Below, one piece after another: positions 2,473 to 46,139 of a stretch of DNA of 64,000 nt; within the stretch, counting starts at the first letter, position 1; every line of letters begins with the position of its first letter. This stretch comes from an uncultured Candidatus Saccharibacteria bacterium (GTDB lineage Bacteria; Patescibacteriota; Minisyncoccia; Phycocordibacterales; GWA1-40-21). The notes beneath the pieces were generated by a model, which searched no databases, was not told where the DNA came from, and was given only the letters and a program-made list of their open reading frames with translations. Both the position numbers and the translations under genes were made by a program. Location of the stretch: positions 11,336 to 75,335 of the forward strand of contig CAZEMP010000001.1 in the NCBI GenBank assembly GCA_964513515.1, in the 5' to 3' direction.

Positions 2473-3075
2473 ATGCAAGAAGAAACAAAAATACAAATAA
2501 ATAAAAATGTTTTAGAAAAACAAATAGAAGCAGTACTTTTTTGGTATGGTGAGCCGGTTTCTATCAAGAAACTTTCTAAAATATTAGAAAGAACCGAAGA
2601 AGAGATTACAGCTTCAATTAAGGCACTTGAAATTAGTTTATCTAATAGAGGCATAGTGATTGTGTCTAAGGATGATGAAGTTACACTTGGCACATCAAAG
2701 GAAGCTTCCTCACTTATTGAAAAATTAACGAAAGAAGAGCTTATAAGAGATCTAGGTAAGGCAGGACTTGAAACATTGTCTATTATTATTTATCAAGGAC
2801 CATTAACAAGAGCTGAAATAGACTATATAAGAGGTGTTCAATCAAACTTTATTTTGAGAAATCTTATGATAAGAGGTCTAGTTGAGAAAGTTCCAAATCC
2901 TAAAGATCAAAGGAGTTTCCTATATAAGCCAACATTTGAAATGTTGAGTTTTATGGGAGTAACTAATATAGAAGAAATGCCAAGTTACAAAGAAGCACGC
3001 GCTGAGATTGAGAGTTATAAAAATACACAAGTTCAAACAGAAACAGTAAAAACAGAAGTAGCTGGAATAGAGTAA
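2473..3075 (+). CDS. scpB: segregation and condensation protein B
   Basis: 200 aa with ScpB-like winged-helix repeats (EAVLFWYGEPVSIKKLSKIL...); synteny with scpA. Confidence 0.7.
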   Translation: MQEETKIQINKNVLEKQIEAVLFWYGEPVSIKKLSKILERTEEEITASIKALEISLSNRGIVIVSKDDEVTLGTSKEASSLIEKLTKEELIRDLGKAGLETLSIIIYQGPLTRAEIDYIRGVQSNFILRNLMIRGLVEKVPNPKDQRSFLYKPTFEMLSFMGVTNIEEMPSYKEARAEIESYKNTQVQTETVKTEVAGIE

Positions 3076-5211: not shown

Positions 5212-6330
5212 ATGTCCAATTCAAAAATAAAGGAAATTGATAAAGTTTTTCTATGGACTGTAATCACTCTTGTTATTATAGGTTTTGTTTTTTTTATATC
5301 AGCGTCAATGGGAATGCTTGCAAAAGACAACCTTCAATTTAGTTCTGTTGTATCAAGACAGATTTTTTTTGGAATAATATTTGGCTCAATAGCTTGTTTT
5401 ATTTTTTCAAAAATAGATTATAGAATTTACAATAAATATTCATCATTAATTTTTATTTTATCTATTATAATAACTTCTCTTGTTTTTGTTCCTGGTCTCG
5501 GTACGGATTTAAATACTTTTGCTAAAAGATGGGTATCCATCTTCGGATTTACTTTTCAGCCGGTAGCCATATTAAATATTGGTTTTATAATATATTGGTC
5601 AGCTTGGCTTTCTTTTATTAAAGAAAGAGTTAGTACTTTTAAATACGGTTTTTTACCACTCTTAGTATTAATATCGATTGTTGGTGCACTTCTTTTAAAA
5701 CAACCAGATACTGATTCATTTTTGATTCTCTGTTTGACTGCAGCCGCTATGTTTATAGTTGCGGGTGGTAGAAAAAGATATATAGCAGCACTAGCTCTAA
5801 TCGGTTTTATTGCTTTGATTGTTCTTGCTTTTAATAGGCCATATATAATGTCTAGAATACAAACTTATATAAATCCAGGAGAAAATTCTCAAACATCAGG
5901 TTATCAGATTCAACAGTCACTAATAGCCGTAGGTTCTGGACAAGTTTTTGGTAGAGGTTTAGGCCAAAGTATTCAAAAATATAAATTTTTACCAGAATCA
6001 ATAAGTGACACAATTTTTGCTGTTCTTGCAGAAGAAGGTGGTTTCGTATGGAGTGTTATTGTGATAGGACTCTTTCTTTTTTTTGTATTCCGTGGATTAA
6101 AAATAGCTATAAAATCGCCAGATTTATTTGGTGGACTTTTGGTGGTAGGAATTGTTATACTAACTGTACTGCAATCTTTTATAAATATTGCTTCAGTATT
6201 GGGAATTATACCATTTTCAGGCTTGCCACTTGCTTTTTTTAGCCAAGGAGGAACAGCAATGCTTATGGTTCTGGTTCAGATAGGGATCGTTTTAAATGTA
6301 TCAAAGTTTTCTAAATCTTTAAGATTTTAA
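5212..6330 (+). CDS. ftsW: SEDS-family cell division/elongation protein (FtsW/RodA)
   Basis: 372-aa polytopic membrane protein; conserved SEDS segment ...PESISDTIFAVLAEEGGF... Confidence 0.75.
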   Translation: MSNSKIKEIDKVFLWTVITLVIIGFVFFISASMGMLAKDNLQFSSVVSRQIFFGIIFGSIACFIFSKIDYRIYNKYSSLIFILSIIITSLVFVPGLGTDLNTFAKRWVSIFGFTFQPVAILNIGFIIYWSAWLSFIKERVSTFKYGFLPLLVLISIVGALLLKQPDTDSFLILCLTAAAMFIVAGGRKRYIAALALIGFIALIVLAFNRPYIMSRIQTYINPGENSQTSGYQIQQSLIAVGSGQVFGRGLGQSIQKYKFLPESISDTIFAVLAEEGGFVWSVIVIGLFLFFVFRGLKIAIKSPDLFGGLLVVGIVILTVLQSFINIASVLGIIPFSGLPLAFFSQGGTAMLMVLVQIGIVLNVSKFSKSLRF

Positions 6331-45911: not shown

Positions 45912-45982
45912 TGGGGGATCGTCTAATGGTAGGACGCGTGCCTTTGGCGCATGCAATCGGGGTTCGAGTCCCTGTCCCCCAG
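45912..45982 (+). tRNA. tRNA-Gln (anticodon TTG)
   Basis: Cloverleaf by eye: acceptor TGGGGGA/TCCCCCA, anticodon arm CGTGC-CTTTGGC-GCATG, T-arm CGGGG-TTCGAGT-CCCTG; 71 nt, no encoded CCA. Confidence 0.8.
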
Positions 45983-46047
45983 CAAGTCAAGTTTTGAATG
46001 TGTTTTTACATTCAAAACTTTACTAGATGGGGAGCATTTGGGACTCG

Positions 46048-46112
46048 AAAGACGGAGTGCGACGGCACGAGTCGGGGTCGCAAGATTTTTCAGCAGAAAA
46101 ATACTTGTGACC
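46048..46112 (+). ncRNA. conserved 65-nt structured element, copy 1 (AAAGACGGAG-GTGCGACGGCAC-GAGTCGG-GGTCGCAAGATTTTTCAGCAGAAAAATACTTGTGACC)
   Basis: 90% identical copy at 57790-57853; differences are compensatory within predicted stems (GTGC..GCAC vs GCAC..GTGC). Confidence 0.45.
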
Positions 46113-46132
46113 GAGTCCCTGTCCCCCAGCAA
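46112..46132 (+). repeat. direct repeat of tRNA-Gln 3' end (CGAGTCCCTGTCCCCCAGCAA)
   Basis: Identical to 45965-45985 inside the tRNA; 147 bp apart; att-site-like footprint. Confidence 0.55.
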
Positions 46133-46139
46133 TAAAAAT

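Follow-up and report, generated by a model that had tools for sequence, protein, structure and literature searches.

Two structured elements at the tRNA genes of the window

The DNA analysed here, a 64-kb stretch referred to as the window, contains two tRNA genes according to ARAGORN and Rfam, one for tRNA-Gln and one for tRNA-Asn, and each is accompanied by a copy of the same structured element (Table 1). The first-pass annotation of this DNA had described a pair of elements about 90% identical, and both are recovered on the forward strand (46048-46112 and 57790-57853), with 58 of 65 bases identical (89%). They are the only two copies of the core in the window, and since they are no more than 89% identical there is no sign of recent transposition within it. 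Folded alone with RNAfold, the two copies share one two-hairpin fold of -28.6 and -25.0 kcal/mol (z = -6.2 and -5.2 for copies 1 and 2, with 0 of 200 shuffles equally stable), and a covariance model of the family scores them at 81.5 and 80.1 bits. In copy 1, a short helix pairs A-GAC (46051-53) with GUC (46071-73) across a GGA/GA internal loop and encloses hairpin P2 (46057-46068, GUGC-GACG-GCAC); after GUC come GGGG and the downstream half, which forms hairpin P3 (46077-46111, GUCGCAAG...CUUGUGAC) with an AGCA loop and a bulged A. The arm swap reported for the 4-bp stem is confirmed as two double, compensatory changes (GUGC-GACG-GCAC in copy 1, GCAC-GUCG-GUGC in copy 2), as is the substitution of A by G in the long hairpin, which turns an A-U into a G-U pair and thus keeps it. 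The long hairpin itself is present, but it consists of 16 pairs with one bulged A and not of the 17 bp originally proposed.

Copy 1 lies, as had been noted, between tRNA-Gln and a direct repeat of the 3' end of that gene, and the repeat, designated segment X, is exact over 21 nt. The same interval also holds an imperfect inverted copy of the tRNA-Gln 3' part, X', which had escaped the first-pass annotation; X' terminates in ...GGGACUCGAA, 1 nt ahead of the core, and pairs with X in a long helix, P1, tipped by a terminator-like hairpin. The ATG of a gene for a 98-aa membrane protein follows 7 nt after the displaced X. From the tRNA gene to the displaced repeat (45912-46133), the entire stretch is predicted to fold at -108.6 kcal/mol (z = -8.3). 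Copy 1 is a T-loop-type cassette behind tRNA-Gln, that is, a core framed by direct and inverted copies of the adjacent gene end. As a separate observation, the octamer TTGAATGT occurs three times in the window (45993-46000, 57882-57889 and 57953-57960), each time inside or beside hairpins flanking the cassettes, an association that may be due to chance in AT-rich DNA.

Copy 2 presents the mirror image of this arrangement. It is preceded by a copy of the tRNA-Asn 5' end (TATTCCGGAGTAG, through G10), repeated in the window, which lies directly 3' of an ancestral promoter-like sequence and provides the 5' strand of a closing stem; the 3' strand of that stem is an imperfect inverted copy of the same tRNA-Asn 5' end. 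With its local P1, core and small hairpin P4, the unit is predicted to form a closed multi-helix junction (-58.7 kcal/mol, z = -7.1), and in a consensus of eight sequences the closing stem of this type covaries with the local tRNA-Asn acceptor sequence. The earlier placement of copy 2 just upstream of tRNA-Asn fragments is accurate: a partial 5' copy and then the real tRNA-Asn lie downstream, and the 13-nt copy of the 5' end also lies upstream. Copy 2 is a cassette of the mirror-image type, inserted after G10 of tRNA-Asn and now situated in its 5' leader.

The second partial tRNA-Asn copy carries a different sequence, module C, laid out as UGAG-hairpin-CGCAAGACC ... GAAAGGUGUAC-hairpin with a CUGUAAG loop. 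Module C (57919-58000 in the window) recurs in partial tRNA copies at L022 (about 2230-2330) and L026 (about 6040-6100), labels of this kind denoting sampled loci outside the window, and one of its copies sits within the P3 hairpin of a core. Its layout of AAGACC, hairpin and GGUGU.. bears a loose resemblance to the core, and CGCAAGACC occurs 25 times in the sampled loci against about 7 expected. Behind the real tRNA-Asn stands a third cassette that had likewise gone unnoticed, with the frame of copy 1 and a cargo termed module B (AUUUUGCUUACG...CGAAAACC). Its order is a terminator hairpin, an inverted tRNA-Asn 3' end split by a hairpin (58185-58231), cargo B and, as a direct repeat, 17 nt of the tRNA 3' end (58306-58322), and related units are seen in L019, L032, L070, L123, L131, L137, L139 and L143.

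Table 1. Features of the cassettes at the two tRNA genes, in window coordinates.
Feature	Position	Strand	Basis
tRNA-Gln(UUG), intact	45912..45983	+	ARAGORN; Rfam tRNA, 57 bits
Segment X, first copy (last 21 nt, from T-loop C56 to 3 nt past the discriminator)	45965-45985	+	Direct repeat
Terminator-like hairpin (AGUUUUGAAUGU/ACAUUCAAAACU), tip of long helix P1 (X + inverted copy)	45986..46027	+	Inverted repeat; fold
X', imperfect inverted copy of the tRNA-Gln 3' part (complement, from T54 onward)	46028..46049	+	Inverted repeat; junction analysis
Core, copy 1	46050..46111	+	Folds; family structure; covariance-model match
Displaced second copy of X (CGAGUCCCUGUCCCCCAGCAA), beginning exactly at T-loop C56	46112..46132	+	Repeat, 100% identical
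Copy of the tRNA-Asn 5' end (TATT + positions 1-10)	57750..57762	+	13-nt direct repeat; uninterrupted site in L152
P1, local 10-bp hairpin (UUGAAAGACU...AGUCUUUCAA)	57763..57791	+	Inverted repeat; folds
Core, copy 2 (A-GACGGA, P2 GCAC-GUCG-GUGC, GAGUCGGGG, P3 ...GUGAC)	57792..57853	+	Covariance-model match; fold
P4, small hairpin (AGCGGUUCCGCU), and 3' strand of closing stem (..CACUCCGGGA)	57855..57878	+	Fold; 8-sequence consensus
Second partial tRNA-Asn 5' copy (positions -2 to 23) with module C	57894..58025	+	Direct repeat; homologous modules in L022 and L026
tRNA-Asn(GUU), intact	58070..58142	+	ARAGORN; Rfam
Third cassette, frame as in copy 1, cargo B	58143..58322	+	Direct and inverted repeats; fold z = -7.5

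Uninterrupted sites in related genomes

By its DinB homologues, the window organism is placed within the Patescibacteria as a Paceibacteria-like member. The history of the tRNA-Asn locus can be read against a relative with 75% DinB identity (L152), in which DUF167 and tRNA-Asn are kept as a divergent pair with a 68-nt spacer and no core is present. The distance from DUF167 to tRNA-Asn is 372 nt in the window, as opposed to 68 nt in L152. The upstream sequence of L152 (gcttcactttt...atttgctattatgc) directly abuts tRNA-Asn; the same sequence in the window abuts the first partial copy, and the real tRNA-Asn begins 320 nt further on. The uninterrupted site therefore indicates that copy 2 and module C are insertions after G10 that now make up the tRNA-Asn leader. 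For copy 1, the comparable locus is L158, where a tRNA-Gln, a spacer of 37 nt and an ortholog of the 98-aa ORF occur without a core, a weaker piece of evidence because both the isoacceptor and the spacer differ from those of the window. Direct repeats of tRNA ends together with an empty site in a relative point to insertion into tRNA genes, and on these sequence comparisons the core is polymorphic for presence and absence among relatives.

A conserved fold in the Patescibacteria

A first pattern scan, covering one genome per species, specified a 12-nt gap in place of the 10 nt of the window copies and hence missed the type with a 4-bp P2; the relatives that it did find accordingly have a 5-bp P2. 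It gave 27 matches, 13 of them with hairpins, all in Patescibacteria MAGs assigned to Nomurabacteria, Saccharibacteria, Parcubacteria and Paceibacterota. With a gap-tolerant pattern, at least 120 metagenome contigs were obtained, and all of those listed but one look genuine. The presence of the same core in 13 genomes and at least 120 contigs upholds the earlier view that the pair in the window is not a recent segmental duplication. The contrary outcome that had been contemplated, of two copies only and random substitutions in any further homologs, does not obtain, as more than 140 further copies share the fold, with covariation.

The covariation is extensive. RNAalifold, applied to 19 copies aligned with MAFFT, returns 23 pairs, 15 of which show compensatory changes, and the covariance model recovers 141 copies in 100 sources. 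In the alignment of these 141 copies, 97.1% of cells are paired, compared with 78% in shuffles and 32-51% when the partners are slid; this alignment was fitted to the covariance model, which favours pairing, and the independent MAFFT and RNAalifold result agrees with it. Double changes are found in 22 of the 23 pairs, and none of 500 shuffles reaches the observed values. Furthermore, 124 of 135 rows have G-U as the fourth pair of P3, and in 111 of 114 copies the complement folds less stably than the given strand. The near-invariance of this G-U pair and the bias in stability imply that the fold belongs to one strand, as RNA or single-stranded DNA, so the structural constraint suggested by the two window copies is borne out across the 141 copies and can be assigned to a strand.

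The resulting core consists of a 3-bp helix (GAC/GUC), an internal loop (GGA/GA), the short hairpin P2 and the 16-bp hairpin P3, and a helix P1 always stands ahead of it. Invariant nucleotides concentrate in the junctions (A-GAC-GGA-G, C-GA-GUC-GGGG-UCG and GUGAC), and the preferred loops are GACG in P2 (65 of 114 copies) and AGCA in P3 (71 of 114). With compensatory changes and strand specificity combined, the core behaves as a conserved structured motif, and its family is apparently undescribed in the literature and in Rfam. A larger, stand-alone version of about 330 nt is also observed, composed of a long hairpin P0, P1, the core, P4 and a conserved tail (...GAGUNACCAC...GGAGCG). It is found on the reverse strand of L007 (4905-5250), L012 (2215-2565) and L021 (4570-4925), and also in L043, L050, L062, L121 and L133; no adjoining tRNA was called for it and it has no Rfam match. 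In L007, a TATAAT-like box lies just upstream.

Placement and target sites

The linkage to tRNA genes seen in the window extends to the family, in which 97 of 143 copies have a tRNA gene no more than 400 nt away, with more than 12 isotypes represented, and 89 of these 97 are co-oriented with that gene. Copies downstream of a tRNA account for 54 distinct loci, and in most of them the junctions are exact: on the left, X' is the tRNA complement from T54 and stops one A before GACGGAG, and on the right, X resumes at C56 straight after GUGAC. A minority of these loci has a local P1 hairpin or weaker matches, and in a tRNA-Ile/tRNA-Val subclass the joins fall at the very 3' terminus. The upstream tRNA is intact in all cases, and the downstream copy is often truncated or degenerate. 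The mirror-image type comprises copy 2 and at least eight orthologous loci upstream of tRNA-Asn in several genera, in the order 5'-end copy, P1, core, P4, inverted copy, spacer and real tRNA.

The flanking direct and inverted repeats take the sequence of the adjacent gene, over lengths of 6 to about 70 nt, and insertion sites include the T-loop (55/56), the 3' terminus, the position after nucleotide 10, the D-loop (in partial tRNA-Ser copies) and the 3' end of topA (L019, L041 and L064). The spacing between direct repeats is 40-100 nt and the unit measures about 100-170 nt in some 130 loci. Distant direct repeats of the flanks, sought as traces of a large autonomous element, lie nearly all within 100 nt of the core, with isolated matches at longer distances (135-2516 nt) in three loci, L024, L124 and L140, and this short spacing identifies the small unit as the entity. 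Antisense cores occur in the T-loop of partial tRNA-Pro copies (L079 5590-5760, L090 1350-1480 and L099 3000-3120), which are situated between intact tRNA-Pro genes and constitute the main exceptions to co-orientation. Identical units stand in tandem in L058 and L110, L026 has a nested copy, and clusters comprise 4-6 copies in 6.7 kb of L019 and about 5 copies in L030.

The topA targets afford a view of the displaced gene ends. In L019, the displaced and the active 3' end encode nearly identical peptides; read directly, about 11 codons show synonymous and 3 show non-synonymous differences, and the predominance of synonymous differences indicates that the carried end evolved as part of a working gene in another lineage and came with the cassette. 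Several cores or core fragments are stacked at the topA-like 3' end of the same locus (560-1300), with two extra copies of the coding end. In L064 (about 2660-2730, reverse strand), the displaced topA end reads K-T-I-UGA-E-R-C-S-N-K, with Pro in place of the UGA in other lineages; the in-frame UGA could be read as an amino acid, in a host of the code 25 type, or the copy could simply be decaying. In the displaced T-loop copy, a small hairpin termed D (AGCGUACUCGCGG / AGUGUACUCACGG) often intervenes just after GUGAC-CGAA, with 29 matches in 22 loci against about 7 expected (for instance in L053, L045, L072, L112, L120 and L147).

Searches for known families and partner genes

No family of Rfam 15 matches the core at gathering thresholds in the window, in 13 related loci or in the larger RNA of the L007 type, and at E <= 10 the local regions give only spurious miRNA-type matches on generic hairpins. 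The families covered include hammerhead, twister, pistol, hatchet and HDV-like ribozymes, group I and II introns, tmRNA, Y RNA and T-box, so the earlier suggestion of a known ribozyme class such as hammerhead, twister or HDV finds no match even at the relaxed threshold. A hammerhead-like reading of the GA core was discarded, as the U-turn is absent. Read against the kink-turn pattern, the family alignments show two helices and the tandem G-A positions in GAC-G-GA-[P2]-GA-GUC, with a bulge of 1 nt where a true kink-turn has 3 nt. A full-text literature search returned no description of the motif, and the only related work to surface concerned group I introns in tRNAs of Patescibacteria.

Several simpler identities were also set aside. 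An obligatory T-loop intron was sought by running ARAGORN on 53,370 joins of upstream to post-core sequence, which yielded only trivial rebuilds of tRNAs that are already intact; the upstream tRNA is complete by itself, and the element is therefore no obligatory intron. A MITE would be at odds with flanking repeats that are not constant between copies and with the absence of a fixed-length target duplication. As a general explanation, mimicry of a tRNA minihelix or a primer-binding site was rejected because the arms carry trailer nucleotides and not CCA, and the TopA, tRNA-Ile and local-P1 versions have no acceptor-like stem.

Clustering of 686 neighbouring ORFs revealed no constant partner protein: housekeeping genes recur, along with a few serine recombinases, LAGLIDADG-like proteins and TopA. 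Neither a recombinase nor a transposase or reverse transcriptase accompanies the copies throughout, and no IntI-like gene was seen among these neighbours. Large serine recombinases are present in 6 loci only and lie outside the unit, with none between the repeats. Their genes (L003 4769-6409, L004 3989-5557, L044 3-1178, and L144 4367-5950 and 6286-7926) converge on a tRNA-Asn/tRNA-Ala cluster from the side opposite the core, and are probably parts of independent integrative elements that share this tRNA locus as a target. A putative protein of about 220 aa, with an HTH-like N-terminus and a LAGLIDADG-like motif in its sequence, is encoded beside core-carrying tRNA genes in five loci (L035 176-841, L051, L054 1491-2147, L087 442-1113 and L115 4234-4920). 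No autonomous or free circular copy was found, and none occurs in IMG/VR, where two scans gave 0 and 4 matches, the latter being chance matches to high-GC coding DNA without hairpins.

Discussion

The reading that best accommodates these observations, and to which we assign about an even chance, is that both window copies are old members of a Patescibacteria-wide family of small, protein-less insertion cassettes that carry a replacement gene end. The cassettes occupy internal or terminal positions in highly conserved genes, for the most part those of tRNAs, nearly always in the orientation of transcription, and each has its own copy of the gene end that it displaces, such that the host gene stays intact and the old end is left behind as a direct repeat. 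In this model, entry would proceed by Campbell-type recombination within the shared gene-end segment; the unit, mobilised in trans, would probably enter as a small circle or as a single strand in folded form. Because an inverted copy of the target segment lies beside the core, a single-stranded unit can close into a stem with a multi-helix junction, and the core may be either the fold recognised at entry or a fold that keeps the transcript harmless. In both the 3' and the 5' type the core follows transcription, despite their mirror-image repeat frames, which argues for a constraint at the RNA level and not for a purely DNA-level mechanism. The cassette model provides no source for the matching inverted copy at each new target. 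Furthermore, the position upstream of tRNA-Asn is kept across several genera and the stand-alone version is conserved in at least eight loci, two counterpoints that a retained and useful RNA would fit as well.

Such a retained RNA is the basis of one alternative, in which the core is a structured domain used by the host, for example as a scaffold for proteins or as an element governing stability or processing. It would be transcribed together with tRNAs, the tRNA-derived flanks serving only as its closing helix and processing sites. The strong conservation of junction and loop nucleotides across distant CPR classes (A-GAC-GGA, GA-GUC-GGGG-UCG, GUGAC, GACG and AGCA) is what a functional RNA would show, and the co-orientation of 89 of the 97 copies near tRNA genes, the occurrence of same-position copies in several genera and the conservation of the larger stand-alone version (in L007, L012, L021 and others) point in the same direction. 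Copy 2, located between the ancestral promoter-like sequence and tRNA-Asn, is by that placement very probably transcribed. A host function does not, however, lead one to expect four to six copies within a single short locus, as in L019, or about five in L030, nor tandem and nested copies, close relatives that lack the core at the same loci, or cores at topA 3' ends and antisense within partial tRNA-Pro copies; the decay of displaced gene ends and the sharing of one frame by unrelated cargo modules likewise sit better with mobility. We consider a host RNA possible, though rather unlikely. A catalytic role is quite improbable, in our estimation: the core would then be a small ribozyme of a new kind, or would supply the catalytic part of an intron-like sequence, cutting or splicing at GUGAC|C or UU|CGA, with X' acting as a guide that aligns the exon-like copies. 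The boundaries are indeed exact at U55|C56 and after GUGAC, X' complements X on either side in the manner of a guide, the junction nucleotides are highly conserved, and the modelled minimum-energy fold of the whole locus predicts a tRNA with the element in its T-loop; moreover, group I introns are common in the tRNAs of Patescibacteria (PMC13011429), and one occurs in L004. No known ribozyme or intron model matches, however; splicing is never required for the upstream tRNA, degeneracy of the downstream copy would often leave a spliced tRNA defective, and the local-P1 versions have no complementarity to a tRNA.

The first-pass annotation had also raised the possibility of decayed integrative elements that target tRNA genes. 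Insertion into tRNA genes, documented by the direct repeats and the empty site, is the part of that proposal that stands, with direct repeats of a tRNA end flanking the insert at tRNA-Gln (21 nt), at tRNA-Asn (17 and 13 nt) and in 54 loci overall. Integrase targets in tRNA genes are typically marked by a direct repeat that starts in the T-loop or at the 3' terminus and extends slightly beyond the gene. Repeats of exactly this extent, together with the large serine recombinase genes near tRNA-Asn in L003, L004, L044 and L144, would be in keeping with attL/attR or arm-site remnants of large integrase-bearing islands once resident in these genes. The identification as decayed arm sites does not hold, since the unit is always about 100-170 nt, has no integrase and contains a conserved core; it neither encodes a recombinase nor is a clear deletion derivative of an element that does. 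In addition, the repeats are spaced 40-100 nt apart and no intermediate-sized or full-length element appears in about 130 loci, the conserved part is a covarying single-strand fold and not a set of protein-binding repeats, an inverted target copy is not expected of such remnants, and the core and the recombinases are found on opposite sides of tRNA-Asn. An origin as att remnants is hence very improbable.

The cassette family is nonetheless related to known kinds of element, namely small structured insertion elements and tRNA-targeting integrative elements, and is neither a known RNA family nor a simple att remnant. Site-specific integrative elements in tRNA genes include the att sites of phages and islands, in T-loop and 3'-end classes, and tycheposon-like stacks of tRNA remnants. 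Like the cassettes, they are flanked by a direct repeat of a tRNA segment from an internal loop to just past the gene end, they restore the gene with incoming DNA, they let displaced ends pile up in tandem and they target conserved genes. The cassettes differ in their length of 100-170 nt, in the lack of an integrase, in the inverted target copy and covarying single-strand fold, and in their ability to insert also at the 5' side, after G10, in a mirror-image frame. A second parallel is offered by integron attC sites and the attP(+) site of CTX phage, in which inverted arms pair and a single strand presents a duplex target site, the fold is strand-specific and arrays form, as in the cassettes. 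By analogy, the cassette order of target, body, inverted arm, loop and target is what a mechanism of the attC/attP(+) type would predict. In the cassettes, however, the stem varies with the target and the loop is conserved and structured, the reverse of attC, and orientation follows transcription; the attC core sites RYYYAAC/GTTRRRY are absent, the stem bases being ...UCGAA and CGA... or derived from the target (TopA: AGUCUUGGUG).

Short, protein-less, structured and multicopy sequences are also familiar as the Rickettsia palindromic elements, the pneumococcal BOX, the Correia elements of Neisseria and REP/BIME. These small palindromic repeats are modular, as are the cassettes with their modules A, B, C and D, and they sit in RNA or protein genes without destroying them. 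They differ from the cassettes in having constant termini, or fixed short target duplications, or none, and we know of no small palindromic repeat that copies its target end in both direct and inverted form, nor of one with a deeply covarying core across the classes of a phylum. The group I introns of Patescibacteria tRNA genes, which form a 35/36 insertion class, share with the cassettes the phylum, the host genes and the presence of structured RNA at exact tRNA positions (PMC13011429). The cassettes are set apart by the lack of a group I fold in Rfam searches, by their sites at 55/56, 10/11 and the 3' end as opposed to 35/36, and by a tRNA that is independent of removal of the element. Both kinds can be neighbours: in L004, a group I intron (5591-5866, reverse strand; Rfam 75.7 bits) in the anticodon loop of tRNA-Asn, in agreement with the published 35/36 class (PMC13011429), lies right beside a core copy. 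The same locus contains a LOOT RNA (1357-1474).

With well over 140 copies sampled across several CPR classes, the cassettes would give a widespread and deeply conserved structured element to a phylum with extremely reduced genomes that are still poorly understood. They are also of consequence for annotation, as they give rise to partial copies of tRNAs, to tRNA leaders and trailers that are long and structured, and to duplicated gene ends. The exact junctions in tRNA loops, the replacement of gene ends and the matching inverted copy together imply an insertion or copying process that no described family explains, and there is a fair chance that the mechanism is new. A more specific proposal, which we regard as doubtful, is that the core and its target-derived arms constitute a protein-less mobile unit made of folded single-stranded RNA or DNA, with a conserved junction that is itself catalytic or serves as a handle for a host enzyme. 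The stem of such a unit would copy the end of the target gene, enabling it to insert into tRNA loops and rebuild the gene. Were this proposal true, the family would represent a ribozyme or guide-type mobile element of a new sort, peculiar to CPR bacteria.
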